DNA of 64,000 nt, taken from positions 10,819 through 74,818 of the forward strand of contig CAISET010000015.1 of the NCBI GenBank assembly GCA_903884505.1, in the 5' to 3' direction. Each line of letters begins with the position of its first letter. The stretch's first letter is position 1. Made by a program: the position numbers and the translations under genes. This document shows, in pieces, positions 12,862 through 62,142 of the stretch. A model generated the notes under the pieces. It saw nothing but the letters and a program-made list of their open reading frames with translations, was not told the origin of the DNA and searched no databases. Source of the stretch: an uncultured Candidatus Micrarchaeota archaeon. GTDB taxonomy: Archaea > Micrarchaeota > Micrarchaeia > Burarchaeales > Fermentimicrarchaeaceae.

Positions 12862-12961
12862 TTTCCTTAGTGGTCGCAGGGCATCCGTCGCCAAAGAATC
12901 TTATCCTAAACGAAGGGTGCCCACTATACTTCCCGAATGCGGAGTCCTACGGGGTGGGTGC

Positions 12962-31174: not shown

Positions 31175-33628
31175 TCACCGCTTCCTCTTCCAGGCAACTG
31201 CCACTGCGATTCCCCCAAGCCCTGCCAGGATGAAGCCGAGCGGGCAGGTTGAAGGCTGCGGTGTGGGTGAAGGTGAGGCTGTCGGCATCGGAGTCGCGGT
31301 CGGGACCGGTGTCGGAGTCGCAGGCGATTGCAGCTGCGGTGCGAACGAATACACATAGGGGTTGCTCGCGTTGTACCTCTGCCAGTAGTCCTGGTTGTCA
31401 ATTGGTATCGGCGCAGAGATGGAAGTGCCGGTGCTGAGGGTTATGTTCGCTGTGGCGTTGCAGTTGTTCGTCGGCGGGTAGAAGTACGGCATCTCGCCCC
31501 TCCGCACGGTCACGGTGTAGTTGTAGCCGCCAGGCCCTTCGCCGCAGTCGAACAGCCAGGAGACGGTCATGTTGTATTCCTCTGCCGGAGAGCCGTCAGG
31601 GTTCGTGACGTTTAGCTGGATGAAGTTGCCGGGTATCTCGGGCGAGTCGTAGCGCTTCTCGTAGATTGGGTTCCCGTATGCATCATTGTGATATATTTTC
31701 GTGTACCCGATGGCTTCCCCGGACTCCCAGTAGTAGTGGTTCATGTAGTCATAGAAGAATCCGTGCGCCGCGAATATCTCGTCGAGGTTGTCCTGGCCAT
31801 TGTTGTCGCAATCGCCGTGTAGGCCCGGGAGACTCGAATCGTTGAACGCGCGGTAAAGGTCCCAGACGCTCGAGATGTAGCGCGTGCCTGAAAATGGCTC
31901 GCCGAACGTGTGCTGGGAGCCTATCACGCTCCATATCTGGTCACGGCTTAGGTGCACGCAATCCTTCCCGTTCACGGTGTTGTTGTACCCGAGGATGTTG
32001 ACTGCCTGGAACAGGGTGGACTGGTGGTTCAGCATCCTGTAAAGGGTTGAGGCGACCGCCATCTCCTCCGGGTTCCTGACATCGGTGTCCAGGTTTATCG
32101 CCGAGCCGGGCTGCCCGACCCAGTAGTCGTGCTGGTCCGTGTAGTTCCAGTACTGGAGGTTCATCACGCTGAAGAATTCAGCCCAGCCCTCTTCCCAGGA
32201 GTCCGTGGAATTGGGGTTGGACCAGCTTCCGTGGTTGTTGCCTGAGCGCACTGGCAGGCAGTTGAACCTGTCCAGCATCACATGGTGGCCGAACTCGTGC
32301 CACTCCATGTTCGTTGGCGAGGCGTCATAGAAGACGTTGTCATATGAGTTCTGGTTGTCACAGAAGTGTATCCAGTCATCGCTCGGAGGATTCCCGCACC
32401 AGGCTCCGAAGTGGCAGGCGTTGCAGCTCCCGCAGCCCGGCGACTTGTACCAGAACTCCTCCGGAGGCAAATAATCGATTGGAGTGCCGAGCGCCACTCT
32501 TGTGAAATATGATGCTTCCCAGGCGTGGTAGTATATCTTCGCCAGCACGCGCTCCTCGCCCTGATCGAAAGTGAGGTTCATGGCGTAAGTTTCCGGCCTG
32601 GAGAAATTCATAATCGCGGTCTTGCTAAGCACAGCCACCTTGTCGGGGTAGACGTGAATGGCGATGGAGTTGTTCACATCCTCGAGGAAAACAGTGACTG
32701 TCAGCGAACCTGCAGTGTGGTTTGTCAGGTTGACTCCGGGAACTACGACGTAGCCGTTCGAGTCCGTGTAGCCGTCGTAATCGAATGCCAACGAGGCGTG
32801 TTGTACGCAGTACTGCCCCGGCGGGCAGTACTGGCTGCCGCCAATCGGTTCGGTCACGTATCTGGCAGTTACCTTGGCATCCCTCAGTGGCTTCGTCACG
32901 TTATCCTTGTCCACGAACTGGGCCGAGCCGAGGCGGAAGTTGCATTTCGTGACATTGTTGCAGCCGGCGGCGCAGTGATAGCCGTTGGAAATCAGGCAGA
33001 GGCCGAGCTGCTGGCCGCAGGCCTTCTCCACGTATTCATCGCCGTAGCAGCCGGTTGTGCAGTTGGTGCAGTTCTGCGGCGGAGCGGTCTGTATTGGTAT
33101 GGGGGTGATGGAAGGTGACTGGATTGGCAACGGCGTCACCATGGGTGTTGCGGTTGGAGTCTGAGCCGGCGTTGGCGTCGGAGTTGGCGCGGGTGCGGCA
33201 GCGCATCCAGGCATTGCTGCGCTGCATCCATACGGGCAAGCGGTTGACTGGGCGTACTGGCAGGCACCGGTCGCACTCCTGTATCCTCCGGAATAGTAGA
33301 TTCTGTCCGAGCAGTAATCGTTGCACGGCGCTGGCGTCGCCGTTGGAGTCGGCGTGGGAGTGGGCGTCGGCCTCGGCGGCGAGTAGCATGCGGTGCCGTC
33401 CCGCGTGCATTGCCCGGATTCGCAGGCGGTGTCCGTGCGGCATGTGCAATTCCCATACACGACCGAGCAGCCGTAGTGGTAAGTGCCATCAGAGCAATAT
33501 TCGAACGGGCAGTAAGGCGTCGGAGTCGGGGTCGCAACCGTCCTTGCATTGGCAGCAAGCGCGAAAAGGGCCAAAACTGCAAATGCTAAAACCGCTCTGA
33601 CTTTCATATGACTCACCTCCGAACTCAC
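31175..33628 (-). CDS. Secreted zinc metallopeptidase (HEXXH). It has Cys-rich N-terminal modules, P/T linkers and a PGF-CTERM-like C-terminal anchor.
   Basis: 817 aa: signal MKVRAVLAFAVLALFALAANA; Cys-rich repeats (YCPFEYCSDGTYHYGCS.., CNDYCSDRIYYSGGY..); a CarbopepD-reg-like segment; the HEFGHH motif followed by EEGWAEFF (candidate third ligand); and the C-terminus ...TPVPTATPMPTASPSPTPQPSTCPLGFILAGLGGIAVAVAWKRKR. Confidence 0.65.
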   Translation of the reverse strand: MSSEVSHMKVRAVLAFAVLALFALAANARTVATPTPTPYCPFEYCSDGTYHYGCSVVYGNCTCRTDTACESGQCTRDGTACYSPPRPTPTPTPTPTATPAPCNDYCSDRIYYSGGYRSATGACQYAQSTACPYGCSAAMPGCAAAPAPTPTPTPAQTPTATPMVTPLPIQSPSITPIPIQTAPPQNCTNCTTGCYGDEYVEKACGQQLGLCLISNGYHCAAGCNNVTKCNFRLGSAQFVDKDNVTKPLRDAKVTARYVTEPIGGSQYCPPGQYCVQHASLAFDYDGYTDSNGYVVVPGVNLTNHTAGSLTVTVFLEDVNNSIAIHVYPDKVAVLSKTAIMNFSRPETYAMNLTFDQGEERVLAKIYYHAWEASYFTRVALGTPIDYLPPEEFWYKSPGCGSCNACHFGAWCGNPPSDDWIHFCDNQNSYDNVFYDASPTNMEWHEFGHHVMLDRFNCLPVRSGNNHGSWSNPNSTDSWEEGWAEFFSVMNLQYWNYTDQHDYWVGQPGSAINLDTDVRNPEEMAVASTLYRMLNHQSTLFQAVNILGYNNTVNGKDCVHLSRDQIWSVIGSQHTFGEPFSGTRYISSVWDLYRAFNDSSLPGLHGDCDNNGQDNLDEIFAAHGFFYDYMNHYYWESGEAIGYTKIYHNDAYGNPIYEKRYDSPEIPGNFIQLNVTNPDGSPAEEYNMTVSWLFDCGEGPGGYNYTVTVRRGEMPYFYPPTNNCNATANITLSTGTSISAPIPIDNQDYWQRYNASNPYVYSFAPQLQSPATPTPVPTATPMPTASPSPTPQPSTCPLGFILAGLGGIAVAVAWKRKR

Positions 33629-34227
33629 GCCTGCCTTATTTCAATCGTCTTCACCACGCTCTTGAGCGGGGCGCCGTTGTAGGAGACCGTGACCGTGAAA
33701 TTGTGCAGCCCGTAAGAGATGCCCGTGCACGTCGTGCATGAGGGCACGTTGAACCCGAAGTGCTGTTCGCTCTCCCCCTGCGGAAGGTCTAGCGTCATCT
33801 GCGTATCCATGATATTGCGGCCCCTCGAGTTGGTGATGCCGACAAGCGAGACGTTCACCCCCTGGAGCCTGCGCGCGGCGGTTATGTTCACGACTATCGC
33901 CATCTGGTCCAGCGCGTGATAGGAATCCCCGTCAGTATATACTTCGAGCGAAGTTATATCCTCGGGCAGGACAGCGCCGGAAGGCGTGGGGCTGGCAAGC
34001 GATTGCGTGGGCGCAGGCGTAGGGGTTGCGACGGGAGTTGCGAAGGGCGTTGGCGCTGGCGTCGGAGTCTGAACTGGAGTTGGCGTGCTCATCGGGGTAG
34101 CCACGGGGGTTGGCGTTGGCGCGGGAGGCACATTTCTGTCAATCCCACCGCTATATACTACTATTGCCGCTGCCGCCATCACGACTGCGAGCAGAACCAC
34201 AACAAGAATCCAGGTCTTCATACTCAT
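33625..34227 (-). CDS. N-terminally anchored extracellular protein with a P/T-rich linker (unknown function), co-transcribed with the metalloprotease
   Basis: 200 aa: MSMKTWILVVVLLAVVMAAAAIVVY signal-anchor, (PT/PA) linker, then a ~100-aa domain. 4-bp overlap with the downstream protease gene. Confidence 0.5.
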   Translation of the reverse strand: MSMKTWILVVVLLAVVMAAAAIVVYSGGIDRNVPPAPTPTPVATPMSTPTPVQTPTPAPTPFATPVATPTPAPTQSLASPTPSGAVLPEDITSLEVYTDGDSYHALDQMAIVVNITAARRLQGVNVSLVGITNSRGRNIMDTQMTLDLPQGESEQHFGFNVPSCTTCTGISYGLHNFTVTVSYNGAPLKSVVKTIEIRQA

Positions 34228-34241
34228 GCCCCCTTTGATTT

Positions 34242-34356
34242 CAGAACCCCCGATGCGCTGGCTTTAGTCGCCTTCGGCGACAACTGCGCAACTCACGTTG
34301 CGCATCGCCAACTTCGTTGGCGACTGCCTGTTGCGCGTTGCGCAACATCGTCGGTT
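34242..34356. repeat. Hairpin-mosaic repeat element, copy A (4 mini-hairpins; shared termini CAGAACCCCCGATGCGC...GCGCAACATCGTCGGTTCCTGAAC)
   Basis: GTCGCC-TTCG-GCGAC, GCGCAAC-TCACG-TTGCGC, GCCAAC-TTCG-TTGGC, GTTGCGC-GTT-GCGCAAC. Homologous to the elements at 34541, 43781 and 50827. Confidence 0.8.
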
Positions 34357-34469
34357 CCTGAACTTCTGTTTTCCGCTGGCGCTTTTTATTATGTTCTTAC
34401 AATTTCCGATTGAACGCTTTACCATACGCAACCCGATGGTAATCGGATATGCGTTGGGAAAGGGTTCAA

Positions 34470-34540
34470 AGCAGAGGATGGGAGTCGAACCCATCTGTTC
34501 CGGTCTGCAGCCGGACGCGTAGCCGCTCCGCCACCTCTGC
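34470..34540 (-). tRNA. tRNA-Cys (anticodon GCA)
   Basis: Minus-strand sequence GCAGAGG-TG-GCGGAGCGGCTACGCG-TCCGG-CTGCAGA-CCGGA-ACAG-ATGGG-TTCGACT-CCCAT-CCTCTGC-U. It forms a 7-bp acceptor stem, a 5-bp anticodon stem with loop CUGCAGA (anticodon GCA), a T-arm with a TTCGA(C)T loop, and a U discriminator. Confidence 0.9.
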
Positions 34541-34700
34541 AGAACCCCCGATGCGCAGGCTTGAGTCGCCTTCGGCGACAGCTGCGCAACTTCGTTGCGC
34601 ATCGCTCTTCGTTCCAAACGAGCTCGCTCACCGCGCATATCCAGTCGCCTTCGGCGACTGCCTGTTGCGCGTTGCGCAACATCGTCGGTTCCTGCACCTC
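34541..34700. repeat. Hairpin-mosaic repeat element, copy B, immediately 5' of tRNA-Cys (in its presumptive leader)
   Basis: Same termini as copy A: agaacccccgatgcgcaggcttga-GTCGCCTTCGGCGAC-...-GCGCAACTTCGTTGCGC-...ctcgctcaccgcgcatatcca-GTCGCCTTCGGCGAC-tgcct-GTTGCGCGTTGCGCAAC-atcgtcggttcctgcac. Confidence 0.8.
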
Positions 34701-34752
34701 CGCCGCTCTGGCGGAGGAGCTTTCTATATTGTGTTAGTCTGGTTTAAAAACG

Positions 34753-39533: not shown

Positions 39534-40064
39534 ATGCGACGGAACAAGGGACAGGCATCCATTGATTCGCCTTCGGCGAAAGCTCGCCGCCTGCTGGGGC
39601 AGGCGTCGATGGAACTTCTAATCACCCTAGCCTTCGCCCTCGTGATGCTCATACCAATCACCATCCTGGTCTACCTGCAGACGTCCTCCGGCTCGGAGCA
39701 GCTGGCGATAGACCAGGCGCAGCAGAGCGCGGCAAGGCTTAAGAACATCGCGGACACCGTGGCGGCCCAGGGCCCGCCGGCGAAGGCGACTATAAGCATA
39801 GTGATTCCACAGAGGCTGAACAGCATAACGATAGGCAGCGCCTCCGCGCCAGGAATAGGCAGGGAGATAATCTTCCACGTAGCGACTTCGGCTGGAGACA
39901 CCGAGATAGTCGCGACAACGCTTTACAATGTTACCGGCGACCTGAGCAACTACACGAAGGCAGGCACGTACCCCATCTATGCTGAAGCTGTGGACGACTG
40001 CCGCACATGTGATGGGAACATCATCGGGCCTGGCCTTCCATGCGTGGTCATCTGTCCGGCGTAG
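39534..40064 (+). CDS. Type IV pilin-like protein (class III signal peptide, Gln+1) P1. The leader holds an internal duplication and a hairpin module.
   Basis: MRRNKGQASIDSPSAKARRLLG|QASMELLITLAFALVMLIPITILVYL. The KG/LG-Q cleavage motif is followed by a ~20-aa hydrophobic helix. The ORF track starts at 39474, upstream of the promoter. Confidence 0.65.
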   Translation: MRRNKGQASIDSPSAKARRLLGQASMELLITLAFALVMLIPITILVYLQTSSGSEQLAIDQAQQSAARLKNIADTVAAQGPPAKATISIVIPQRLNSITIGSASAPGIGREIIFHVATSAGDTEIVATTLYNVTGDLSNYTKAGTYPIYAEAVDDCRTCDGNIIGPGLPCVVICPA

Positions 40065-43780: not shown

Positions 43781-44105
43781 TGCCGCCTTGCGGCAACAGC
43801 TTGCCCGCCACCAAGCGGGCAATCGCCTGCTGGCGAAATGTTGGCAACTGCGGCCGCCAACGCTCGCTGCCATATCCAGCCGCCTTCGGCGATTGATTTC
43901 GCCTTGCGGCGAAAGCTTTCGCATCCCGGATGCGAAATTTTAGCGGCAAAGCCGCTAAAGCTGTCGCTTTGCCGCGGGCAAAGCGCCATTGAGTCGCCTT
44001 TCGGCGACAGCTCAAATCGCCTGCGGCGATAACTGCGCAACTCACGTTGCGCATCGCCAACTTCGTTGGCGACTGTCTGTTGTTTCGCCCCGCTCAACAA
44101 CATCC
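43781..44105. repeat. Hairpin-mosaic repeat element, copy C (longest, ~13 mini-hairpins) in the convergent intergenic region
   Basis: TGCCGC-CTTG-CGGCA, GCCCGC-CACCAA-GCGGGC, GTTGGC-..-GCCAAC, CCGCC-TTCG-GCG, TTCGCC-TTGCG-GCGAA, TTCGCATCC-CG-GATGCGAA, AGCGGC-AAA-GCCGCT, CGCTTTGCC-GCG-GGCAAAGCG, GTCGCC-TTTCG-GCGAC, ATCGCC-TGCG-GCGAT, GCGCAAC-TCACG-TTGCGC, GCCAAC-TTCG-TTGGC. The 3' end is a degenerate copy of the shared terminus. Confidence 0.75.
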
Positions 44106-44135: not shown

Positions 44136-45128
44136 TTACGTAAGTATCCCGGCGAAGACGGTGCTGAATATCCAGTTCGTCATGAAGAAGATCGACAGCC
44201 CGGCAGCCATGATGAAGGGCATTATCCTTAGGCCGTTGGCGGAATTGCCGGTCTGTATGACCGCTATTATAAGAGACGCGATTGCCGTGGTGATGATGGT
44301 CGAGAGAAGGGAGAATGCGAAGAAGTCCGAGGACGTGATTCCGGGTGGCTGGGGCGAGAGGAACATCATCCCGCCGGTCGGCAGGCCCTCGGGGTTCTGC
44401 TCCAGCACCCTGTCCCATATGACGTTCGTGATGTTTATGAGCTGGTTGGACAGCGCATAGAGCAGGGGCGCGCCGACCACGCTCGCGAATATTATGAATA
44501 TGACATACATCAGCATCATTCCGGAAATCTCCTTGTGGAGCAGCTGCAGGTTCCTTATGTCCTGCCCCGTCTTCTCGAGCAGCGCCGCGACCTCGCCACC
44601 TGCCGACATCCCCTCAACGAGGAGGTTTATCGTCCTCTCGAGCGTCTTCGACTGGAACCGCGTCCCGAGCCTCTTTATCGCATCCATGAAAGGCTCGCCG
44701 CTGAACGTCCTCTTCGTGACCATCTCCACCTCCTGCGAGAGCAGGCCGAACTCGGGCCTGGCGGCGAACCACAGCGCCCGGTCTATGGGCATGCCGGCGC
44801 GCACATTGGCGCTCGCGAGCTGGAGGAACTCCGGGAGGATGTTCTCCACCTTGTTCCGCCTGTCGTCTATCCTGAGGAGCAGCCACGCATAAATTATCCC
44901 AAGCGCCACGAATATGAGGCACAGGGAAACTATCAGCGCATATTTCGGAAGGAACGGGTTGATGAGGAAGAACGAGACCAGCGGGACGATCGCGCAGAGC
45001 ACCATAACCGTGCCCACGAACGCCTCGGGCCTCATGTTCACTCCTGCCATCGAGAGCGTGCTCGCAATTCCCATCACGAAGTTCCTCGGAAACATCCTTC
45101 CCAGTGCGTTAAGCTCAACCATATTCAA
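44136..45128 (-). CDS. Type II secretion system F-domain membrane protein (FlaJ/TadC/EpdK-like pilus platform protein), C-terminal-half paralog
   Basis: 330 aa with ~8 TM segments and the T2SSF-like cytoplasmic segment (...LLQLASANVRAGMPIDRALWFAA...). 4-bp overlap with the upstream platform gene. Confidence 0.75.
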   Translation of the reverse strand: MNMVELNALGRMFPRNFVMGIASTLSMAGVNMRPEAFVGTVMVLCAIVPLVSFFLINPFLPKYALIVSLCLIFVALGIIYAWLLLRIDDRRNKVENILPEFLQLASANVRAGMPIDRALWFAARPEFGLLSQEVEMVTKRTFSGEPFMDAIKRLGTRFQSKTLERTINLLVEGMSAGGEVAALLEKTGQDIRNLQLLHKEISGMMLMYVIFIIFASVVGAPLLYALSNQLINITNVIWDRVLEQNPEGLPTGGMMFLSPQPPGITSSDFFAFSLLSTIITTAIASLIIAVIQTGNSANGLRIMPFIMAAGLSIFFMTNWIFSTVFAGILT

Positions 45129-46111
45129 ACCTCGAAGTTCGGCCTTGAAGAACTCATCATCGCAAGGAAGATGTACTGCAGCACCCCGAGCAGGAACAGC
45201 ACGATGAGCAGCATATTGAAGTCAATCTTTATGTTGATGAATGAGGTCAGGATAATGCCTATCGCGATGCCCAGCGAGGGCAGTATGATCCCGAAAAGCA
45301 TGTAGAACATCGTGATCGGGTTCAGCGTCTGCCCGTACCTCTTGAGCGCGATAACCTGCTCCTGCGAAATCTGGCTCAGCACTATCTCGAGCGCCAGCGC
45401 CATGTCGGCGCCGGACCTCATCGATGTGACCATCTGCAGGAGTATCTGCCTGAACGGCTTGGAGGTGTTCATGTCGCTGGACTCCTGCATGGCGATCTCC
45501 GCGGGCACGCCGCTCTGTATCCTCTCCACAATCTTCCCGAATTCCTCGCTCGCCACCCCGTAGTTCCTGCTGACGTTCGCCATCGCGTTGAAGAGCGGGA
45601 CGCCGGACTTTATGGCAATAAGCATGTCCCTCCCGGCGAAAAGCACGTCCCTGTCGAGGTCCTTCTCCCTCGCCTTTATCTTGACTTTCGGATACTGTAT
45701 AACCCACAGGAAGACGGCCGCGAAAACCAGCGGTATCACGAGCAGCGTTAGGAGCAGCGGCAAACTCAGGGTGGTCGCCAGCACTGCGAACAGTACTCCG
45801 CCCCCAAGCGCGAATATGGTTGCGACAATGAGGGTTTGTGCGATGAATTTTGGCGCGTCCATCGGCATGTTCGCCCTCTTCAGGTTCTTCTGGAGCTCCG
45901 GGAACCGCTTCTCTAGGAGCCTGAGGCCTATCTTGATATAGTCGGTCCGCTGCTTCGCCTCCACCCGCGGGAACTTCTTCGGAGGCGCCTTCTCAGCTTC
46001 CGTCCTCTCCACCAGGGCCGCCGTCTCCTTCTTCTGCTTGGCGCTGAGCTTCTTCTTCGCCTCCTCTATTGCAGCCGCAACCTCTGCAGCGCTTTTCTCA
46101 GCCATAAGCAT
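45125..46111 (-). CDS. Type II secretion system F-domain membrane protein (FlaJ/TadB/EpdJ-like pilus platform protein)
   Basis: 328 aa: cytoplasmic N-terminus, then TM helices and a T2SSF segment (...FAGRDMLIAIKSGVPLFNAMANVSRNYG...EIAMQESSDMNTSKPFRQILLQMVTSMRSGADMALALE...). Confidence 0.75.
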   Translation of the reverse strand: MLMAEKSAAEVAAAIEEAKKKLSAKQKKETAALVERTEAEKAPPKKFPRVEAKQRTDYIKIGLRLLEKRFPELQKNLKRANMPMDAPKFIAQTLIVATIFALGGGVLFAVLATTLSLPLLLTLLVIPLVFAAVFLWVIQYPKVKIKAREKDLDRDVLFAGRDMLIAIKSGVPLFNAMANVSRNYGVASEEFGKIVERIQSGVPAEIAMQESSDMNTSKPFRQILLQMVTSMRSGADMALALEIVLSQISQEQVIALKRYGQTLNPITMFYMLFGIILPSLGIAIGIILTSFINIKIDFNMLLIVLFLLGVLQYIFLAMMSSSRPNFEV

Positions 46112-46931: not shown

Positions 46932-48443
46932 CTACCAAAACTGCTCGGGGTTGAACTGCGCATCGGACTGGACCATGTTAAGGACATCCTCGGGGCTCCT
47001 GTAATACCTCGCGATGACAAGCCCCACGTCATCCACTGACATGACCTTGTTCTTGAACATCCACCTGAGCACCTTGGACTTCTCGGCTATGCTCTCGCCT
47101 ATCTCCTGGTGCGTCATGCCAGCATAGAGCGCGAGCGTGTCAGCAAGCACGCTCATCTCGTTCAGCTCCTTGATAGCATCAGTCTTCAAGTCCCATCTGT
47201 AGAGCACGTTCACGTCCCCGCCCTTCGTCACTTCCGCGAACTCCAGCACGCGGCGGATTCCGAGCCTCCTGTGCCTGAACTGGACCACTATCGCGCTGAT
47301 GGCATCCAGCATGGTCTTCGGGATGTTGACGGGCGGGTTTATCAGCCTTGTAATCGTGTCGCCGGCATTGTCCGCGTGCAGTGTCGCGTAAACCGAGTGC
47401 CCCGTGTGCATTGCCTCGAACAGCACCTCTGCCTCGCGCTGCCTTCGAATCTCTCCCACCAGCATCCTGTCGGGCCTCTGCCTCAGGGAATTGACTAGCA
47501 GGTCCAGCATCGTGACCTCTCCCTTCCCCTCGACATTCGCCTCCCTTGTAATCATGGGCACCCACTGGAAGAACTTGGGCAGCGTCAGCTCCCTCGTGTC
47601 CTCAATCGAGACTATGCGCTGGTTCGGCGGGATGAACGCGGAGATGGCGTTGAGGAAGGAGGTCTTCCCGCTCGCGGTCCCTCCGCTCACAATCACCGAG
47701 AGCTCGTTCTGGAAGCAGAGCCAGATGAGCGCAGCCACTTCCGGAGAAATGGTGTTCTTCTCCATCAGGCGCGTTATTGTCCAGGGGTTCCTTGCGAACT
47801 TGCGGATTGTAATCGTGTTGCCGTGCATGGAGACCGGGAACAGCGTGGCATTCACACGCTCCCCGCTCGGCAGGTGTGCGTCCATCAGCGGGTTCAAAAT
47901 GGTTATCTGCTTCCCAATCCTCCTGCCTATGGAAGCGGCATGCTCGTAGATAGCCTCCTCGCTCTTGAGCCTTATGTTCGTCTTGCACCATCCATACGTC
48001 TTGTGGTATATCCAGACGGGCTCATCCGCGCTGTTGACGACTATCTCCTCGAGCTGGTCGTCATGCAGGGGCGGCTCCAATTCGCCCATCCCAAGCATCT
48101 GCTGTATCAAATATGATGCCAAAATCTTCTTCGTGTCTTCGCTGAGCGTCATGAAGTGCTTCTCGAGCAGCCTCGTGGCCTTCTCCTCGAACTTCCTCTT
48201 CACCTGCTCGGCCATCCTCGGATTGATAAGCTCGCTGACATCGAGCTTCACCTCGGTTATGAGCTCTCCCTTCAGCGTGTTCAGGACTATCTTCGTCCCT
48301 TCCCCCAGCCCCGGTATGGCTATTTCATAAAGGGGCACGAAGTCCCTAGTCTGCAAAATCCTGACATTGACCGGTATCCCGTCTGCGTCTATGCTGTACT
48401 GGTCAAGCAGCTTCTCCTCGCCTTTTCCCGCAACATCAGCCAC
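46932..48443 (-). CDS. Type IV pilus / archaellum-family secretion ATPase (FlaI/TadA/PilB-like, VirB11 superfamily)
   Basis: 503 aa with Walker A GGTASGKTSFLNA, Asp box IVSIEDTRE, Walker B/His box ...RPDRMLVGEIR...TGHSVYATLHA. Confidence 0.9.
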   Translation of the reverse strand: MADVAGKGEEKLLDQYSIDADGIPVNVRILQTRDFVPLYEIAIPGLGEGTKIVLNTLKGELITEVKLDVSELINPRMAEQVKRKFEEKATRLLEKHFMTLSEDTKKILASYLIQQMLGMGELEPPLHDDQLEEIVVNSADEPVWIYHKTYGWCKTNIRLKSEEAIYEHAASIGRRIGKQITILNPLMDAHLPSGERVNATLFPVSMHGNTITIRKFARNPWTITRLMEKNTISPEVAALIWLCFQNELSVIVSGGTASGKTSFLNAISAFIPPNQRIVSIEDTRELTLPKFFQWVPMITREANVEGKGEVTMLDLLVNSLRQRPDRMLVGEIRRQREAEVLFEAMHTGHSVYATLHADNAGDTITRLINPPVNIPKTMLDAISAIVVQFRHRRLGIRRVLEFAEVTKGGDVNVLYRWDLKTDAIKELNEMSVLADTLALYAGMTHQEIGESIAEKSKVLRWMFKNKVMSVDDVGLVIARYYRSPEDVLNMVQSDAQFNPEQFW

Positions 48444-49640: not shown

Positions 49641-49670
49641 CTTTTATTAATAGCATTAATAAGCTTTTAG
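49641..49670. promoter_or_regulatory. Bidirectional promoter with perfect palindrome TTATTAAT-AGC-ATTAATAA flanked by cttt/aagctttta
   Basis: The only AT-rich island between the divergent pilus-assembly operon (-) and the gene at 49696 (+). TATA-like halves sit ~25 bp from the starts on each strand. Confidence 0.5.
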
Positions 49671-49695
49671 GTGTCATTATAAACGTCGTGATGCC

Positions 49696-50802
49696 GTGGC
49701 ACTGAAAGAGCAGCTCCTTTCGACCGTTTTGAAGAAAGAGGAGCTGAGCCCCATCGAGCGGTTCAAGTTCGAAAGCCTGCTTTCTGACAAGTTCGGGAGG
49801 GATGGCCTGCGCGTCTATTTTCTCATAAACGGGATCAACACCGTGCAGCAGATGCTCTCGCAGACCGGAGTCAGCGAGAAGAGGCTCCTCGAAATCCTTA
49901 ATTTCGCGTCCGACAGCGGGGTCATCCGAATCGCGCCCACGCTTCTCGAGGACGTCCCTTCCGGGCCGGCCCCTGGCGTGGCGCCAGACATGGCGAGGGC
50001 GAAGGCAGGCGTCATGCCCACTCTCCGCTCATCCGCTGAGAAGAAGCTCTATGACCAGTTCGGCCAGCAGGGCGTTGATGTCTACCGGCTCATGGACAAG
50101 GTCAGCCTCCCTTCCGAAATCCTCTCCCGCATCCCAATCCAGGAGGCAAAGCTGCTCGAGATACTCAAATACATGCAGAAGGAGGGCCTCATCGGGCTGC
50201 AGGCCCCCGAGGAGGCGCCCGCCGAGATTGAAGAGGAGGAGATTCCCGCGCCAAGGGAGGAAGCCCCAAGGCCCGTTAAGGCGCAGATGCCCCCGAAGCT
50301 TCCAACCCAGGAGCTCGCGCTTCCCCCGCGGCCAGTCTACCTCCCAATAAAGAGGCAGCTCGGCCTTTTCGGAAAGCTGAAGATAGAGGCGGAGCTCATC
50401 AAAAGGTTCGGCCAGCACGGCATGCACCTCTACTCGCTCATAGACGGCGAGAGGACCACCATCAAGCTTTCCAAAATCTCCAGGTACCCGATGTCGCTCA
50501 TCGACAGCATGCTCGACATCCTTTCCGCGCACGGCGCAATCGAGCTGCGCGAGCTCACCGGGGACGAGATAAGGGAGCGCTACGGGGAGGAGGGGCTCGC
50601 AATCTACGACGTCTACGGCCGCGACGGCGTGCTCATCTACGAGATGATAGACAAGCGCGCCACAATCAAGGAGATAATAATGGCAAGCGGCCTCCCGCCC
50701 AAGCGCGGGGTTGAGATTTTCGCCTTCATCCACAAGATCCTCGGGCTCGAAATCCCGCTGGACACCAACATCCTCTACAGGCAGCTCGGGATAGAGGAAT
50801 AG
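49696..50802 (+). CDS. Protein of four ~50-85-aa internal repeats (unknown function; upstream partner of the giant pilin-like genes)
   Basis: GTG start, 368 aa. The repeats are LLSDKFGRDGLRVYFLINGINTVQQMLSQTGVSEKRLLEILNF.., KKLYDQFGQQGVDVYRLMDKVSLPSEILSRIPIQEAKLLEILKY.., ELIKRFGQHGMHLYSLIDGERTTIKLSKIS..SMLDILSAHG.., DEIRERYGEEGLAIYDVYGRDGVLIYEMIDKRATIKEIIMASG.. Confidence 0.5.
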   Translation: MALKEQLLSTVLKKEELSPIERFKFESLLSDKFGRDGLRVYFLINGINTVQQMLSQTGVSEKRLLEILNFASDSGVIRIAPTLLEDVPSGPAPGVAPDMARAKAGVMPTLRSSAEKKLYDQFGQQGVDVYRLMDKVSLPSEILSRIPIQEAKLLEILKYMQKEGLIGLQAPEEAPAEIEEEEIPAPREEAPRPVKAQMPPKLPTQELALPPRPVYLPIKRQLGLFGKLKIEAELIKRFGQHGMHLYSLIDGERTTIKLSKISRYPMSLIDSMLDILSAHGAIELRELTGDEIRERYGEEGLAIYDVYGRDGVLIYEMIDKRATIKEIIMASGLPPKRGVEIFAFIHKILGLEIPLDTNILYRQLGIEE

Positions 50803-50804
50803 CC

Positions 50805-53800
50805 ATGTCCCGAAACCGTGCCCAATCAGAACCCCCGATGCGCAGGCTTGAGTCGCCTTCGGCGATTGTGTCGCCTTCCGGCGACAGCTCGCCAACTTCG
50901 TTGGCGACTGCTGCGCAACTTCCGTTGCGCATCGCTCTTCGTTCCAACGCGATTTGCGCTTCGGCGCAAATGCGTCGCAGTTCGCCACCGAGGCGAACTT
51001 GCGAACGAACTCGCTCGCCGCGCATATCCAGTCGCCTTCGGCGACTGCCTGTTGCGCGTTGCGCAACATCGTCGGTTCCTGAACCTCCGCACATCAAAGG
51101 TCAGGCAGCCATAGAGTTTCTTATTACAAACGGCTGGGCCATCCTCGTCGTAGTCATCCTTCTCGCCGTCCTCTTCTACATAGGAGTTTTGAGCCCCCAG
51201 AACACCACGCCTAACACCTGTCTTTTCCAACCCGGCTTCTCCTGCTACACATTCAAAGTGGGAAATGTAACCGGTTCCCTGGAACTGGATTTTGGCCAGG
51301 CGACAGGCAAATCAATTCTAGTCACAGGAATCTCCTGCTCCCAGAACGCAACTGCCGCACTCCATACATCTCCCCTTGCGGAGGACATCACCGTCCCATC
51401 AGGCGAGCATCGCTGGATTGCCGGGGGAACTTCCAACAACAGCGGCATCATCTGCGAAGGCGCGACAGGCGTGGCAGGTAGCAGGTACAAGGGCACAGTC
51501 TGCGTAAATTACATCGAATCCGACGCCAACGCCCAAAGATTAATCTGCGGAGACATAAACGCGAGGCTTGAGCCGGCATCCATACCCCGCGGGAGCCCGA
51601 CAACTACGCCATACCCGACTCCGCCGCTAGGAGCGACTCCCATCACCGACTGCTCCTCCAGCCCCATCATAATCAGCTCTCCGGGCTATTACTACCTGAA
51701 CAGCAGCCTTACCTCAAGCGGCAACAACTGCATAGAAATAACCGCGGACGCCAGCAACTCCATCCTGGACTGCTATGGCCACAGCATAACCGGCACACCC
51801 TACAGTGGCGCGGGCATCTATCTGCAGGCCACCACTGGAGTAACTCTGAGGCATTGTGTCGTTAGCACATTCTATCAGGGCATTCTCCTGGGCCCTTCCT
51901 CCACTGGCAACATCATCACGGACAACACCGCCAGCTCGAACCAACATGGCATCTTCCTTCAGTCGGCCAACGGCAACACCATAACCGGCAACATTGCCAA
52001 TTCGAACGGCGACACGGGCATCTACTTCTTCTCCTCGAGCGACAACAACCTTACCGGCAATAACGCCCTTGCAAACAACGGCTACGGCATCTATACGGAC
52101 GGCAACTCGGCCAACAACCTGTTCACGGGAAATGCCGCCTGCTGGAACCGGAACCAGGACGTCCACTGCGACGTGTCCCAGAGCGAGGGCAATGATAACA
52201 TCTGCATGCCCTACGAGGAAACCGTCTGCTCGGGCAGCATCACCTGCAACCCCGTCTGTCCGGCTCCCCCGGCTCCCGCATGCGCGCCAGGCTTTGTGGT
52301 GAGTTCCTGCGACTGCGTGCTGAACGTTCCCGGCAATTACACGCTTGAAAGCGACCTGAATGAGACGCAGGGCGGCGACTGCATAGATATCATAGCAAAT
52401 GATTCGAACCTCGACTGCCAGCACCACAGCATCACGAGCCAAAGCGGCGGCACCGGCATAATGATAGTCAACTGGAATACCTATAGCATAAGCGGAGTGA
52501 GCGTTGAAAACTGCAACGCCAGCAACCTCTCATATGGAATTTACGCATACGGCGTGTACAACAGCACAATAACGGACAACATTGCCAGCGCGAACCAATA
52601 TGGCATCTTCATCCAGTCGTCCAGCGGCAACATCATCTCGGGCAACACCGCCAACTCGAACCCCAATACCAACATCTACCTCTCTTCCGCAACAGACAAC
52701 AACCTCACGGGCAACACTGCCCTCGCAAGCATCAACGGCTACGGCGTCTATGCGGACGGCAGTTCGAGCAACAACCTGCTCACGGAAAACTCCGCCTGCT
52801 GGAACCAATACGGGGACGTATACTGCGACGCGCCCCAAACTGAGGGCAACGGCAACATCTGCATGCCATACGAGGGAACCGCGTGCCTGGACAGCATCAC
52901 CTGCAACCCCACATGCCCATCGCCTTCCCCACCGGATTGCGCACCGGGCTGGGTGGTAAGCTCCTGCGGCTGCACGCTGAACATGCCTGGCAACTACACA
53001 CTGGAAAGCGACCTGAATTCCACGGGCGGCGACTGCATAGACATCACGGCAAATGGTGCGAACCTCGACTGCCAGCACCACAGCATCACAACCCAAGGCG
53101 GAGGCAACGGCATAATGATAGCCAACTGGAATACCGGCAGCATAAGCGAAGTGAGCGTTGAAAACTGCAACCCGAGCAACTTCAGCGTTGGCATCTACGC
53201 GTATGGCTTGAGCGGCGGCAACATGAGCGGCAACACCGCCAGCGCCAATTCCGAGGGCATGATGCTGCAGAACTCCAACGGCATTGAAATCACGGGCAAT
53301 ACCGCCAGCTCGAACTCCGATGTCGGCATCCTCCTATCGTCATCAAGCGACAACAACCTCACGGGCAATCACGCCACTGGGAACAACGGAATCGGCGGCA
53401 TCTATGCGGACTCCGGTTCCAGCAACAACCTACTCACGGACAACACCGCCTGCTGGAACACATATTATGGCATCTACTGTGATGCGCCCCAAACTGAGGG
53501 CAACGGCAACATCTGCATGCCATACGGGGAAACCGCGTGCTTGGGCAGCATCACCTGCAATTCCGAATGCCCGCCGCCTGAGCCGCCCGCCTGCGCCCCA
53601 GATTGGGTGGTGAATAGCTGCTCATGCATCCTCGGAGTGCCGGGAGATTATACGCTTGATTCCGACCTGCATTATTCGGACTACAGCGATTGCATAGACC
53701 TCTATTCCGGCGCAAGCGGCTCAACCCTCGACTGCCAGGGGCACAGCATAACCGGAGTTCCGGGCATGGGGCAGGGCATCGCACTCTGGTCCAATAACAT

Positions 53801-55514
53801 CACAGTCAGGAACTGCAACCTGGCCAATTTCAGCAACGGCATCGTTGCCTTCACCACCCACGGCAGCAGCATCATCGGCAACAACGTCAGTTCAACCGAC
53901 TATGGCATCTCCCTATGGTCTTCTTCAACCAACGATACTATTGCGGGCAACAACGCCAGCTTTAACATTTTTGGCATCACGCTGAGTTCGTCCAGTGGCA
54001 ACAACTTCACGGACAACATAGCCATGAACAACACTGCCACCGGAAATTCATTTGCCGACTTCTATTGCATATCGTCGGATTCAAACGGTGATTATGGCAA
54101 CGTCTGTGAAACGCAGGCTGGCTGCGAGTCGTGGCTCGGCTGCGGCCTTATGCCCGCCTGCAGTTCCAGCATCACAGAATGCTGCGTAATCAACTCCACT
54201 GGCTCATACTCGCTCGCGGACGATATCTCTGCCGCCGGCGACTGCATAAGCATCCTGCCCGGTGCTAACGGAGCGACGCTTGACTGCGGCGGCAAGACTA
54301 TTACGGGGCCGGGAAACAGCGGCAACGGAATCCAGTTGTTCGGCACAAGCGGAGTGACTGTGGAGAACTGCGGAGTCAGCGGCTTTATGTACGGCATAAG
54401 CTTGTCATCAGCAAACGGCAATGCAATAACAGGCAACAACGCCAGCTCAAACGGCCAGATCGGCATTTTAATGAGTGCATCAAACGGCAATGATATCACG
54501 GGCAACACAGCTAATTCAGACTATAGCGGCATCAGCATGTCGTATTCCGATGGCAACACGATAACCGGCAATACGGTCTCGAACGGCAACTCGAACGGCC
54601 AAGGTATCATTATGTCCCAATGCGATGGCAATGCCATAACCGGAAACACTGTCACCCTGAACTACTACGGTATTTACCTCTCGTATTCAACCGACAACAC
54701 AATCTCCGGCAATATCGCAAACTCGAACCACTTCGGCATCGAAATAGAGTACTCGAGCTACAACAACACCGTGACTGGCAACACTGCCTGCTGGAGCGGT
54801 GAACTGAATAAGAATATCTACTGCGATGTTGCCCAAAACGACGGCGGCGGCAACATCTGCGCACCTGAGGGCCCGAACACGGTCTGCTCGCACAACGTCT
54901 CCTGCGGTTCCGGATGCCCGCCGCCCCTTCCGCCCTCCTGCGCCCCCGGCTGGGTGATAAGTACCTGCCCATGCACCATCGGAGTGCCGGAGAGCTACAC
55001 GCTTGATTCGGACATTAATTACACGAACCCGTCTGGTGGAACCTGCATAACAGTGTCGGCAGGGGCCAGCGGCGCGACCATAAACTGCCAAGACCACAAC
55101 ATCACAGGCTCAGGAAGCGGCTTCGGCATCTCCCTTTACAGCGTCAACGGCATTAGTGTCGAGAACTGCAAAGTGAGCAACTTCAGCAAGGGCATCTACC
55201 TCAGTTACGCCAATGGCAACACCCTAACTAACAACATCGCCAGCTCGAACCACGATACCGGCATCATGATCGAAGGCTCCAACAACAACACCTTTACGGG
55301 CAACACCGCAAACCAGAACACCTACGAAGGCATGTACCTGCAGTACGGAAGCACAAACAACAACTTCACGGGCAATACGGCAATTGGCAACTCGGACTAC
55401 GACTTCATATGCAACAGCTTGAACTCCAACAATGACCTCGGCGGAAATGTATGCAGCAACCGAGATTCCTGCGGCCCGAACCCGCCCTATTGGCTCAACT
55501 GCACCGCACCGTAG
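50805..55514 (+). CDS. Giant pilin-like beta-helix protein B1. The class III signal ...HIKG|QAAIEFLITNGWAILVVV puts mature Gln at 51102. Five ~215-aa Cys-rich-linker + parallel beta-helix modules follow. The start codon is uncertain.
   Basis: 1569-aa ORF. The first 99 codons are read through hairpin element D, with no ATG/GTG/TTG just upstream of KG|Q. The module is ...ACWNxYGDVYCDAPQTEGNGNICMPYEGTAC..SITCNPxCPxPxPPxCAPGWVVSSCxCxLNxPGNYTLESDLN...DCQHHSIT...NNLTGNTA... (PbH1/NosD-like repeats). Confidence 0.65.
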   Translation: MSRNRAQSEPPMRRLESPSAIVSPSGDSSPTSLATAAQLPLRIALRSNAICASAQMRRSSPPRRTCERTRSPRISSRLRRLPVARCATSSVPEPPHIKGQAAIEFLITNGWAILVVVILLAVLFYIGVLSPQNTTPNTCLFQPGFSCYTFKVGNVTGSLELDFGQATGKSILVTGISCSQNATAALHTSPLAEDITVPSGEHRWIAGGTSNNSGIICEGATGVAGSRYKGTVCVNYIESDANAQRLICGDINARLEPASIPRGSPTTTPYPTPPLGATPITDCSSSPIIISSPGYYYLNSSLTSSGNNCIEITADASNSILDCYGHSITGTPYSGAGIYLQATTGVTLRHCVVSTFYQGILLGPSSTGNIITDNTASSNQHGIFLQSANGNTITGNIANSNGDTGIYFFSSSDNNLTGNNALANNGYGIYTDGNSANNLFTGNAACWNRNQDVHCDVSQSEGNDNICMPYEETVCSGSITCNPVCPAPPAPACAPGFVVSSCDCVLNVPGNYTLESDLNETQGGDCIDIIANDSNLDCQHHSITSQSGGTGIMIVNWNTYSISGVSVENCNASNLSYGIYAYGVYNSTITDNIASANQYGIFIQSSSGNIISGNTANSNPNTNIYLSSATDNNLTGNTALASINGYGVYADGSSSNNLLTENSACWNQYGDVYCDAPQTEGNGNICMPYEGTACLDSITCNPTCPSPSPPDCAPGWVVSSCGCTLNMPGNYTLESDLNSTGGDCIDITANGANLDCQHHSITTQGGGNGIMIANWNTGSISEVSVENCNPSNFSVGIYAYGLSGGNMSGNTASANSEGMMLQNSNGIEITGNTASSNSDVGILLSSSSDNNLTGNHATGNNGIGGIYADSGSSNNLLTDNTACWNTYYGIYCDAPQTEGNGNICMPYGETACLGSITCNSECPPPEPPACAPDWVVNSCSCILGVPGDYTLDSDLHYSDYSDCIDLYSGASGSTLDCQGHSITGVPGMGQGIALWSNNITVRNCNLANFSNGIVAFTTHGSSIIGNNVSSTDYGISLWSSSTNDTIAGNNASFNIFGITLSSSSGNNFTDNIAMNNTATGNSFADFYCISSDSNGDYGNVCETQAGCESWLGCGLMPACSSSITECCVINSTGSYSLADDISAAGDCISILPGANGATLDCGGKTITGPGNSGNGIQLFGTSGVTVENCGVSGFMYGISLSSANGNAITGNNASSNGQIGILMSASNGNDITGNTANSDYSGISMSYSDGNTITGNTVSNGNSNGQGIIMSQCDGNAITGNTVTLNYYGIYLSYSTDNTISGNIANSNHFGIEIEYSSYNNTVTGNTACWSGELNKNIYCDVAQNDGGGNICAPEGPNTVCSHNVSCGSGCPPPLPPSCAPGWVISTCPCTIGVPESYTLDSDINYTNPSGGTCITVSAGASGATINCQDHNITGSGSGFGISLYSVNGISVENCKVSNFSKGIYLSYANGNTLTNNIASSNHDTGIMIEGSNNNTFTGNTANQNTYEGMYLQYGSTNNNFTGNTAIGNSDYDFICNSLNSNNDLGGNVCSNRDSCGPNPPYWLNCTAP
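50827..51090. repeat. Hairpin-mosaic repeat element, copy D (8 mini-hairpins), inside the 5' end of the first giant pilin-like gene
   Basis: Starts cagaacccccgatgcgcaggcttga-GTCGCCTTCGGCGA... and ends ...GTCGCCTTCGGCGAC-tgcct-GTTGCGCGTTGCGCAAC-atcgtcggttcctgaac, as in copies A and B. Confidence 0.8.
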
Positions 55515-60510: not shown

Positions 60511-62142
60511 GTGATAGCTCCGGGAAAAAGGCACGGGCAATCCGCGATTGAATTGCCTTCGGCAATAGCTCGCAGATCGCACGGGCAATCTGCGATTGAA
60601 TTCCTCGCCACGTACGGCTGGGCCCTCCTCATCATCCTCGTATTCATCGCCGCCCTATACCTATTCGGCGTATTCGACACGAGCCGCTACATCCCGAGGC
60701 ACTGCTCACTGGAGCCCGGGCTCGAGTGCTCCTCCTTCAAGATGATGAAGAACGACACGTACATCACCGTGGTCTTCTCGGGCTACAACGGCCTCGGCTA
60801 CGACATAGGGTTCGATGCCGGCACCGCAACCCTGATGGCCGAGAACATAGGGGGCATAGGCAAGAACAACTACGTGGGCACGTGCTCTCCATCCCTGGTC
60901 AGGAAAGGGACGCCCTATACCTGCGTAATCATCACCAAGGACATGAACCGAACCCCTGCGCTCGGAGAGGCACGAAGGATGGGCATCTCACTCACATACA
61001 AGAACTGCGAGACAAATCCCGCCTACCTCGCAAACCGCACGGCAGCCAACTGCGCCGCCCCGCTCGCCCAGAGCCGCACGGTCACGGGCGAAATGGCCAC
61101 CCAGATGGAAAGCTATTCCGACACCCTATGCGGGAACGGAATCTGCGACGACAACCTGGGGGAAACCGCTTCAAACTGCCCGGCCGACTGCCTGCCCCGG
61201 CCATTCAGCATGCACCTCGCCTCCAACCAGTCCGCCATAACGGCAAACGGCTCCTCCTCGCTTCTGACAGCGACCCTCTTCGACCAGTTCGGCAGCCCGC
61301 TCCCCGACTTCGAGGTTGATTTCAGCCAGAACTCCACCGATGGGTCGCTCGATTCCAGCTCGGGCACCACGAACGACACCGGGCAGGCCAGCGTCACCCT
61401 CACCTCGGGAACAACCCCGCAGTGGGTGCTCGTGAACGCGACGGCGGGCTCGGCATCCGGGATTACGGTCGTGGTCTTCACAGGGGCCGCCCCGACTCCA
61501 ACTCCTACCCCAACCCCCACACCAACTGCAACTCCGACGCCAACGCCCACACCTACTCCAACCCCCACGCCGACCCCAACTCCGGCACCGACCTGTCCCG
61601 ATTCCGGGCAAACGGAGTTAACGACTTGCACCGGAACGCCGATTTCGAGTGCCGGCACATACGTCATGTGCCACAATCTCACATCTTGCACGGGCTTTAC
61701 GATAGGCGCAGACAACGTTTTGCTGGACTGCCAGGGTTACTCGTTGATCGGCTCCGGGAGCGGAACAGGCATGTACATGCTCGACCGCACCGGAGTGAAC
61801 GTGACTAACTGCAACATTCAGAGCTTCAGCTTAGGCATGTATCTCAACGGCGGCAGCGGCAGCCATGGCTGCAGGGTTACAAACAACAACTTCACAAGTG
61901 ACACCACTGCAATGCAGGTATGGCATTCATCATACAGCAACCTAATCCAGAACAACAGGATTACGGGCGCCACGAATGGGTTTTATGTCGCCTTGAGTGC
62001 CTCTAGCAACACATTCACAAACAACATCGGAACGAGCAACACTTACGACTTTATCTGCGCTAGCGAAGGATCTGGCAACACCGCCACCGGGAACACCTGT
62101 ACCTACCGCGATTCCTGCACCTGGGTCGATTGCGGATCGTGA
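60511..62142 (+). CDS. Pilin-like beta-helix protein B4 (GTG 60511 or TTG 60553). The leader carries a 24-bp duplication around a TTCG hairpin.
   Basis: MIAPGKRHGQSAIELPSAIARRSHG|QSAIEFLATYGWALLIILVFI. Same N-domain and Big_1-like domain as B3 (78% identical stretches), a (TP)n linker, a Cys knot and a short beta-helix array. Confidence 0.7.
   Translation: MIAPGKRHGQSAIELPSAIARRSHGQSAIEFLATYGWALLIILVFIAALYLFGVFDTSRYIPRHCSLEPGLECSSFKMMKNDTYITVVFSGYNGLGYDIGFDAGTATLMAENIGGIGKNNYVGTCSPSLVRKGTPYTCVIITKDMNRTPALGEARRMGISLTYKNCETNPAYLANRTAANCAAPLAQSRTVTGEMATQMESYSDTLCGNGICDDNLGETASNCPADCLPRPFSMHLASNQSAITANGSSSLLTATLFDQFGSPLPDFEVDFSQNSTDGSLDSSSGTTNDTGQASVTLTSGTTPQWVLVNATAGSASGITVVVFTGAAPTPTPTPTPTPTATPTPTPTPTPTPTPTPTPAPTCPDSGQTELTTCTGTPISSAGTYVMCHNLTSCTGFTIGADNVLLDCQGYSLIGSGSGTGMYMLDRTGVNVTNCNIQSFSLGMYLNGGSGSHGCRVTNNNFTSDTTAMQVWHSSYSNLIQNNRITGATNGFYVALSASSNTFTNNIGTSNTYDFICASEGSGNTATGNTCTYRDSCTWVDCGS

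Follow-up and report, generated by a model that had tools for sequence, protein, structure and literature searches.

How is a pilin gene translated when a large and highly structured DNA repeat lies between its start codon and the mature part of its product? The question is posed by B1, a gene for a giant pilin on the plus strand of a 64,000-nucleotide (nt) stretch of DNA from an uncultured Candidatus Micrarchaeota archaeon (contig CAISET010000015.1, positions 10,819 to 74,818). This whole stretch is called the window in the following, and position 1 is its first letter. Within the leader-coding part of B1 sits element D (50827..51081, with a tail to about 51089, plus strand), a mosaic of hairpins with inverted-repeat ends which was delineated by the alignment of its copies, the list of its hairpins and its predicted fold. 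The initial annotation had offered three possibilities, namely that the insertion destroyed the start and the promoter, that B1 is translated with a leader of about 100 amino acids rich in Arg, Pro and Ser, or that initiation occurs at a non-canonical codon such as an ATC close to the cleavage site. The evidence favours the second: with moderate confidence we suggest that B1 is translated from ATG 50805 through element D.

B1 is a single frame of 1569 codons from ATG 50805 to 55514. The sequence reading, the list of open reading frames and the translation agree on this, and the frame is indeed open, as had been stated, from the ATG through the element to HIKG|QAAIEFL. The translation begins with MSRNRAQS, continues with about 87 Arg/Ser/Pro-rich codons of the element and then reads PPHIKG|QAAIEFLITNGWAILVVVILLAVLFYIGVL. 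The first segment (50805..50828, plus strand), comprising the start codon, a short basic leader and a pseudo-cleavage site, resembles a complete class III leader with its cleavage motif; comparable are the leaders of the paralogues P0002-P0009 and the first site of the two-site leaders described below. Paralogue leaders read MRRA|Q, MKRG|Q, MGSDHRA|Q, MAGKSLRA|Q and MGIRSSNNRA|Q and are 4-17 amino acids long. The codons for H-I-K-G, positions -4 to -1 of the real class III site, occupy 51090..51101 (plus strand) with the cleavage point between 51101 and 51102, and QAAIEFL and a hydrophobic stretch of 25 amino acids come next. The N-terminal helix of mature B1 reaches a Kyte-Doolittle maximum of 3.37 over 15 residues, and the N-terminal 60-70 residues are identical to those of P0002-P0009. 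Together with NosD/beta-helix repeats (Pfam NosD 1.2e-93, Beta_helix 2.5e-74) this helix makes up the mature protein (51102..55514, plus strand). The public protein P0001 (1441 amino acids), which is 100% identical, begins with MSPQNTT at TTG 51189..51191 (plus strand). This public start cannot be right, as it drops the signal peptide and the transmembrane helix. The skipped helix is residue for residue the same as in P0002-P0009, and the true start of B1 must hence be upstream of 51102.

What lies upstream fits a start at ATG 50805. The preceding gene (49696..50802, plus strand; 368 amino acids in the list of open reading frames) ends with TAG 50800-50802, leaving a gap of 2 nt to the ATG. 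A GAGG that resembles a Shine-Dalgarno (SD) motif is found at 50794..50797 (plus strand, -11 to -8), 7 nt 5′ of the ATG, and the same GAGG precedes other operon-internal genes of the window at equal spacing, for example gaggttagccaATG at gene 1902-2822. No TATA box is present in the 400 nt upstream of ATG 50805. The TATA-like motif cattataaac stands upstream of the 368-amino-acid gene (promoter at about 49655-49682, plus strand), and this promoter would have to drive B1 as well. Since the ATG follows the upstream stop after only 2 nt, there was never space for a promoter of B1 itself, and B1 would therefore always have been read from the transcript of the upstream gene, also before the insertion. 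The proposal that the insertion destroyed start and promoter holds only in part: the start is intact and a promoter had no room, and the dependence on the upstream transcript would predate the insertion. The contrast drawn with the other giant pilin genes is broadly right. B3 and B4 start with GTG 57190 and GTG 60511 (both plus strand), each about 25 nt past a TTTTAAA box, and B2 has a GTG start and, by translation, a leader of 9 amino acids.

Could translation begin further downstream? Between the element and the cleavage site (51082-51101) there is no ATG, GTG or TTG in any frame, as had been noted; the five in-frame starts inside element D were overlooked, however (ATG 50838, GTG 50868, TTG 50901, TTG 50925 and, as the last, ATG 50970). 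Initiation at one of these codons on a polycistronic transcript would give a leader of 44-88 amino acids. From ATG 50970 the leader would be very basic, 44 amino acids long and start with MRRSSPPRR. None of the five has an SD-like motif, and none a TATA box at the spacing found for the leaderless genes of the window; all are situated in or beside stable stems, whereas ATG 50805 has both the SD-like motif and the position expected for stop-start coupling. We regard initiation inside the element as improbable.

Two further explanations are together less probable still. The first is initiation near the site at ATC 51093, which would give M-K-G|Q; ATC AAA GGT resembles the short paralogue leaders MKRG and MRRA, but neither a promoter nor an SD-like motif precedes the ATC. 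A non-canonical start is moreover unnecessary, as the nine pilin genes with hairpin inserts described below likewise have no start near the real site. The second is an assembly artefact that joined the start of another pilin gene to B1 via the repeat, and repeats of 120-260 nt can indeed confuse short-read assemblers. B1 and the 368-amino-acid gene were, however, assembled independently with the same gene spacing in two ENA assemblies from different samples, which argues against a misjoin at the repeat.

The total length of element D itself is 255 nt; the tail that it has in common with copy B brings it to 263 nt, close enough to the 264 bp given initially. It is composed of about ten perfect hairpins with stems of 6-9 bp, mostly TTC(G) loops and linkers of 2-4 nt such as AGCT. 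The 5′ terminal inverted repeat CAGAACCCCCGATGCGC (50827..50843, plus strand) has three exact copies in the window and no others there, even when up to 3 mismatches are allowed. The 3′ terminal inverted repeat CAACATCGTCGGTTCCTG (51064..51081, plus strand) likewise occurs three times without mismatch in the window, and in the lowest-energy fold it is paired with the 5′ end; the pairing arms are CAGAACCCCCGATG and CATCGTCGGTTCCTG. The RNA fold of the element is predicted at -142.6 kcal/mol (z = -7.1 relative to shuffled sequences). Within the 64 kb the density of hairpins peaks at element D and at three other places, and the core hairpin GTCGCCTTCGGCGAC, with at most 2 mismatches, occurs 9 times where 0.4 occurrences are expected.

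The two other copies with inverted-repeat ends are found on the plus strand at 34242-34360 (copy A, annotated to 34367) and 34540-34694 (copy B, to 34701), with 119 and 155 nt between the inverted repeats. Copy A is located in the 5′ untranslated region (UTR) of gene 33625-34227 (minus strand) and copy B abuts the 5′ end of the gene for tRNA-Cys (34470-34540, minus strand). In the alignment element D consists of copy B with additional hairpins in two internal blocks; the parts common to B and D are almost identical. Hairpin array C (43781..44105, plus strand) lies between convergent genes and has no inverted-repeat ends; it contains a relic of a pilin site (RGQSAIE) followed by three hairpins, and its internal units are common to copy A.

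Each of the three copies with inverted-repeat ends is placed so that a start signal lies on one side of it and the mature part of the gene on the other. Copies A and B, which have the same orientation, flank the tRNA-Cys gene on its two sides. Copy B overlaps the first base of the tRNA, and the only TATA-like box, TTTTTAAA (about 34735-34745, minus strand), lies on the far side of the copy. From this position it follows that the transcript of tRNA-Cys would have to carry some 170 nt of structured leader, and that copy B would be part of what RNase P takes off. Element and cloverleaf are predicted to fold independently of each other. tRNA-Cys is the only tRNA gene found in the 64-kb window. The positions of A and B fit the rule that the element is tolerated where the affected stretch is discarded or remains untranslated.

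We suggest that expression of B1 proceeds as follows. B1 would be transcribed together with gene 49696-50802, and translation from ATG 50805 would yield a prepilin with a leader of 99 amino acids that is rich in Arg, Ser and Pro and not hydrophobic. This leader would stay in the cytoplasm while the helix inserts into the membrane; the prepilin peptidase could then cut at KG|Q and release a normal mature pilin. The predicted leader, of which LESPSAIVSPSGDSSPTSLATAAQLPLR is an example peptide, has a net charge of +13 and a Kyte-Doolittle maximum of 1.0, values compatible with a segment that remains cytoplasmic. The insert might thus be tolerated for the reason that the leader is discarded during maturation, as copy B in the leader of tRNA-Cys.

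The leader does not appear to be a conserved protein domain. The initial annotation had asked whether orthologues carry the same long N-terminal extension. Among 1.84 billion representative proteins no homologue of the 99 amino acids was found save a spurious protein with a 21-fold repeat, and the leaders of the paralogues are short. The word-index protein search with the leader returned two ordinary pilins. The conserved domain was therefore rejected for want of a homologue at the protein level. At the level of nucleic acid, element D matches no Rfam family, the 21-mer of its 3′ end has no match in GTDB genomes or metagenomes, the 17-mer of its 5′ end none in viral contigs, and a blastn search with the whole element found no match in plasmids and phages.

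Is B1 then an isolated curiosity? The same layout, that is a start, a pseudo-site, one or more in-frame hairpins and the real site, with no start codon after the hairpin, is found in at least nine pilin genes besides B1, two in the window and seven in other metagenomes. The survey for two-site leaders searched one frame, and out-of-frame cases, that is dead genes, are invisible to it. As there is no start between the hairpin and the real site, these genes can be read only from the upstream start and through the hairpin. The recurrent architecture goes beyond the initial annotation, as do the small versions in B4 and in the gene at 39534 and the bulge-helix-bulge motif discussed further below.

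In the window, the leader of B4 (60532..60602, plus strand) reads VIAPGKRHGQSAIE-LPSAIARRSH-G|QSAIEFL. A direct repeat of 23 nt made up of the site codons (60532-60554 and 60580-60602; 22 of the 23 positions identical) flanks an in-frame insert of 25 nt, with the hairpin ATTGCCttcGGCAAT and, after it, AGCTCGC. Only one base separates the two copies of the 23 nt, which points to a recent event. A simple tandem duplication was considered for the B4 insert and rejected, as the 25 nt are unrelated to the sequence after the second repeat. The second case is the leader of a small pilin gene (39534..39614, plus strand), MRRNKGQASID-SPSAKARRLL-G|QASMELL, with the hairpin between the sites at 39566-39580; here the hairpin is TTCGCCttcGGCGAA, again followed by AGCTCGC.

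The metagenomic archaea with this layout are unrelated to the host of the window and have 51-62% G+C. In locus L001 two adjacent pilin genes carry the hairpins TTTTCGCtgcGCGAAAA and TTTTCACtccGTGAAAA. L003 has one such gene, MAQKRAQNAIK-SPSATARILRA|QNAMEFL, in which hairpin and linker are identical over 22 nt to a module of the window. L060 has the same two-site layout and L125-L127 contain two genes with it. In L061 (reverse strand, about 1123-1260) the leader has three sites and two different hairpins, KAQSAIQ-..-RGQSAIE-SPSATARQLH-G|QSAMEFL, which indicates that the unit of site plus hairpin can be repeated. Given these smaller versions in pilin leaders of unrelated archaea, B1 is probably still working. 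Element D is the largest known case of hairpins settling in pilin leaders, and it appears to belong to a family of palindromic, non-coding repeats built of hairpin modules that repeatedly settles in the segments coding for class III leaders.

Public gene calls for these pilins often begin in or after the signal peptide, at TTG 51189 in the case of B1 and at the M of QSAMEY in L003 (position 1462). The signal peptides of these pilins are thus systematically lost from the databases, and gene finders will repeat the error made for the start of P0001 wherever hairpins sit in the leader.

It is the hairpin and not the encoded peptide that is preserved. In an alignment of the stems 98% of the 60 cells pair, four of the six pairs are changed on both sides and none of 500 shuffles reaches the observed score, with the limit that the alignment was trimmed by hand around the hairpin and so leans towards structure. 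The peptide encoded by the insert varies freely (SPSAT, LPSAI, SPSAK, FSLRE). Since the stem is kept by compensatory changes while the peptide varies, the constraint acts on the nucleic acid. No Rfam family matches the 15 loci which bear the hairpin.

The number of hairpins also differs between strains. L125 and L127 represent the same locus in two samples, with 98.2% identity in the sequence downstream of the leader. The leader of the first pilin gene has one hairpin in L125 (274-375; MNKKGQSAIESPAATARRLRG|Q) and three in L127 (190-330; MRKGQSAIEPPSATAKVAFGDNCATHVAHRLLRG|Q). The difference amounts to +42/-3 nt, that is 39 nt net, and keeps the frame. Four substitutions are clustered within 12 nt of site 1 and look like a conversion tract. 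The stretch imported into L127 includes 43 nt identical to copy A of the window, and together with the G-Q-S-A-I-E codons about 90 nt match the intergenic array C at about 90% identity. These shared stretches imply that blocks of site codons and hairpin move between leaders, intergenic arrays and organisms. We suggest that the hairpins could spread by recombination or gene conversion that uses the cleavage-site codons (...CAG TCG GCG ATT GAG...) as homology, which would account for the additional site copy beside the hairpins. The pattern points to a so far undescribed spread of palindromic repeats by recombination on a conserved coding motif. An insertion of the IS200/IS605 type targeted to TTGAT was also considered, as ATTGA precedes every hairpin; it was set aside, for ATTGA is at the same time contained in the A-I-E codons within the cassette.

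Against translation through element D several points have to be weighed, and most of them speak at the same time for another explanation: that B1 is dead or strongly down-regulated by a recent selfish insertion whose frame is open by luck, with the RNA structure or the leader blocking translation, membrane insertion or cleavage, and with other giant pilins (B2-B4 and the paralogues elsewhere) covering the function. The predicted leader is three times as long as the longest in our comparison set (4-34 amino acids), where it is without precedent, and to our knowledge no class III leader of such length has been described. An insertion has a chance of 1/3 to be in frame and four of the six reading frames of the element are without a stop codon, so that the open frame speaks only weakly for selection. 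The near identity of copies B and D makes the insertion recent, and the intact frame of 1569 codons is no proof of function. The fold is very stable and the roughly ten hairpins in the first 300 nt could impede translation. Redundancy is plausible as well, with many paralogues of almost the same N-terminus in the same assemblies, and the survey, being limited to one frame, was blind to out-of-frame examples of two-site leaders. On the other side the start, the SD-like motif, the leader with its pseudo-site, the stop-free in-frame element, the real site HIKG|Q and all 1569 codons are intact. Smaller inserts are kept in frame in nine other pilin genes, including the strain pair that differs by 39 nt, and tRNA-Cys evidently tolerates copy B, which separates its promoter from its 5′ end. 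We therefore consider loss of function of B1 unlikely, though it is the most serious of the alternatives.

If the leader is made and cut as we suggest, leaders in the archaeal prepilin pathway can be far longer than assumed, and the cleaved leader would be a safe landing site for selfish palindromic DNA. The number of hairpins may serve as a length or frame switch for surface filaments. The wider pattern of cassettes that carry site codons, vary in number between strains, recur in unrelated archaea and in intergenic arrays and make use of a 20-mer abundant in bacterial hairpin mosaics too may be the more interesting result.

A further possibility arises from the fold of the element. Element D can form a canonical bulge-helix-bulge motif of correct handedness with outer, central and inner helices of 8, 4 and 7 bp and two bulges of 3 nt. 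The 5′ strand is at 50836..50856 (plus strand, cgatgcgc-AGGC-[TTG]-agtcgcc) and the 3′ strand at 51040..51061 (plus strand, ggcgact-GCCT-[GTT]-gcgcgttg). The motif was found with a script whose search topology was derived from the geometry of tRNA 37/38 introns. An identical motif is present in copy B (34557 / 34660), and copy A has a U-U mismatch in the central helix of 4 bp. A second, nested and weaker motif (4/4/3 bp) is located at the inverted repeats of A, B and D and is proper for the minus strand only. The tRNA-splicing endonuclease might thus excise an intron of 203 nt (cuts after 50849 and 51052), and after religation B1 would be translated from GTG 50818, which is then in frame with the pilin, with a leader of 27 amino acids, MPNQNPRCAGFARCATSSVPEPPHIKG.

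We think splicing of B1 very improbable. The predicted intron is not a multiple of 3, and after its removal the SD-led ATG 50805 would be in the wrong frame and run into TGA 51081; only GTG 50818, which is unsupported, remains in frame. The fold with the motif is less favourable than the lowest-energy fold by 8.1 kcal/mol in D and 7.3 kcal/mol in B, copy A has the mismatch in its central helix, and the two to three copies are not independent and none shows covariation. Moreover, the motif is built from the arms of repeated hairpins, which makes chance hard to rule out. We know of no spliced gene homologous to the arrangement in B1. In geometry and handedness the motif agrees with the archaeal bulge-helix-bulge introns of tRNAs, rRNA processing stems and the cbf5 mRNA (PMC2738675, PMC12558985): its two bulges of 3 nt are on opposite strands, 4 bp apart, with flanking helices of 8 and 7 bp. 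It differs from them in not being the lowest-energy fold and in that its removal fails to restore the SD-led frame. In addition, such introns in mRNAs are known only from a few crenarchaeal genes (PMC2738675).

Somewhat broader, and scarcely more probable, is the idea that the element is a stealth mobile element cut from RNA by the tRNA-splicing endonuclease of the host in either orientation. With a plus-strand motif in B and D and a minus-strand motif in A, B and D, excision could occur whichever way the element was inserted, and of the three copies one is placed in a pilin leader, one in the 5′ leader of a tRNA and one in a 5′ UTR. If true, a DNA repeat would act as an archaeal intron in mRNAs and pre-tRNAs and would be a concrete source of intron gain.

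Translation through the element without harm to the host protein, which we favour for B1, has parallels in known repeats. Rickettsia palindromic elements (RPEs) and intragenic MITEs, or miniature inverted-repeat transposable elements, are, like element D, short, multicopy, palindromic and non-autonomous, and are translated in frame inside genes without destroying the host protein (PMC10969869). RPEs encode a conserved peptide and are accommodated in surface loops of mature enzymes (PMC10969869). Element D is inserted in frame (50805-55514 is open) but does not share a peptide with its copies: the copies of the window (119, 155 and 255 nt) have no reading frame in common, neither A nor B codes for protein, and no homologue of the peptide was found. 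It differs further in its place in a cleaved leader, in its archaeal host and in being a variable string of different hairpins.

With MITEs copies A, B and D have the terminal inverted repeats in common, and the three copies in 64 kb have identical ends and a translation without protein homologue; no direct repeat that could be a target-site duplication is recognisable flanking A, B or D. The repeated cleavage-site codons of B4 and similar genes, which span 18-23 nt, arrive with the cassette. Repetitive extragenic palindromic sequences (REPs) and bacterial interspersed mosaic elements (BIMEs) resemble the element of the window in several respects (PMC3184786, PMC10969869): they are assembled from GC-rich hairpins of roughly 20 nt, which vary in order and number and are joined by short linkers, their copies are scattered close to the ends of genes, and as RNA they fold strongly. 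The mosaic character is evident, as D is B plus extra hairpin blocks and further units are common to A and C. REPs and BIMEs lie outside genes by definition. So do A, B and C, whereas D, the B4 insert and the insert of the gene at 39534 lie in open reading frames. The modules also travel with a copy of the pilin cleavage-site codons, which is not a trait of REPs or MITEs. With no target-site duplication, no strictly extragenic location and no shared peptide, the element is a variant rather than a member of these three kinds.

The opa genes of Neisseria contain phase-variable CTCTT repeats in the leader-coding region, and changes in their number switch the frame on and off. As in the pilin leaders described here, the number of repeats varies between strains within a cleaved leader, where a change in length is harmless. 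In contrast to opa, the units here are hairpins of 18-25 nt of differing sequence and not a short tandem repeat, and only in-frame states were seen in the one-frame survey. Class III leaders with hairpins or with a duplicated cleavage site are described neither in the pilus census (PMC4858521) nor in the literature covered by full-text searches, and the hairpin sequence is printed in no paper found by full-text search.

Class III membership of these pilins rests, in our sequence analysis, on the motif and on the gene context. B1 has HIKG|QAAIEFLITNGWAILVVVILLAVLFYIGVL directly before the hydrophobic stretch, and genes of the T2SSE and T2SSF families are nearby. Class III signal peptides (PMC4858521) likewise have a basic leader, (K/R)(G/A)|Q before a hydrophobic helix and T2SSE/T2SSF neighbours; the leaders of the paralogues and metagenomic pilins compared have 4-34 amino acids, whereas the predicted one of B1 has 99 and carries an upstream pseudo-site. 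The B1 leader is basic, but it is well outside the usual range of a few to about 30 amino acids. At E values up to 1, Pfam and NCBIfam gave no match for the N-terminal part of B1, B3, B4 and the small pilin gene (39534).

The genes belong to a locus resembling those of type IV pili at 44-62 kb of the window. Its minus strand encodes a T2SSE ATPase (46932-48443, profile match 1.1e-38), two T2SSF proteins (45125-46111 and 44136-45128, profile matches) and a coiled-coil protein. On the plus strand the 368-amino-acid gene is followed by the four large genes with NosD/beta-helix repeats, B1-B4. The product of the former has a weak match to helix-turn-helix proteins, and Pfam and NCBIfam profiles gave sub-threshold matches only. 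A gene for a prepilin peptidase of the PibD/EppA/FlaK type was not identified in the window. The paralogues P0002-P0009 are 45-59% identical overall with the first 60-70 residues almost invariant, and at least some giant pilin paralogues are encoded at different loci within the same assemblies. The near invariance of the 5′ ends suggests that recombination or conversion keeps them alike.

The 20-mer AGTCGCCTTCGGCGACAGCT is found in at least 120 metagenome contigs and in 12 viral contigs. Almost all of the matches listed have an apparently bacterial context (gut, soil, prophage) of the form ..cctc(a)tc-[20-mer]-cccccNNNgggggagcc, often arrayed with other hairpins. These bacterial-context loci match no Rfam family. 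The grammar of a hairpin plus AGCT would therefore seem to exist also in Bacteria, by shared ancestry or by convergence.

The window as a whole is archaeal, with a G+C content of about 57%. Its promoters are of the TATA/BRE (transcription factor B recognition element) type and stand about 25 nt upstream of leaderless starts; genes within operons have SD-like GAGGTG motifs ahead of theirs. No relatives of B1 were found in GTDB genomes. The best outside match of a housekeeping enzyme, the ADP-forming acetyl-CoA synthetase, is only 35% identical, so the host would appear to represent a deep archaeal lineage. The largest open reading frame of the window encodes 3456 amino acids (12917-23287).

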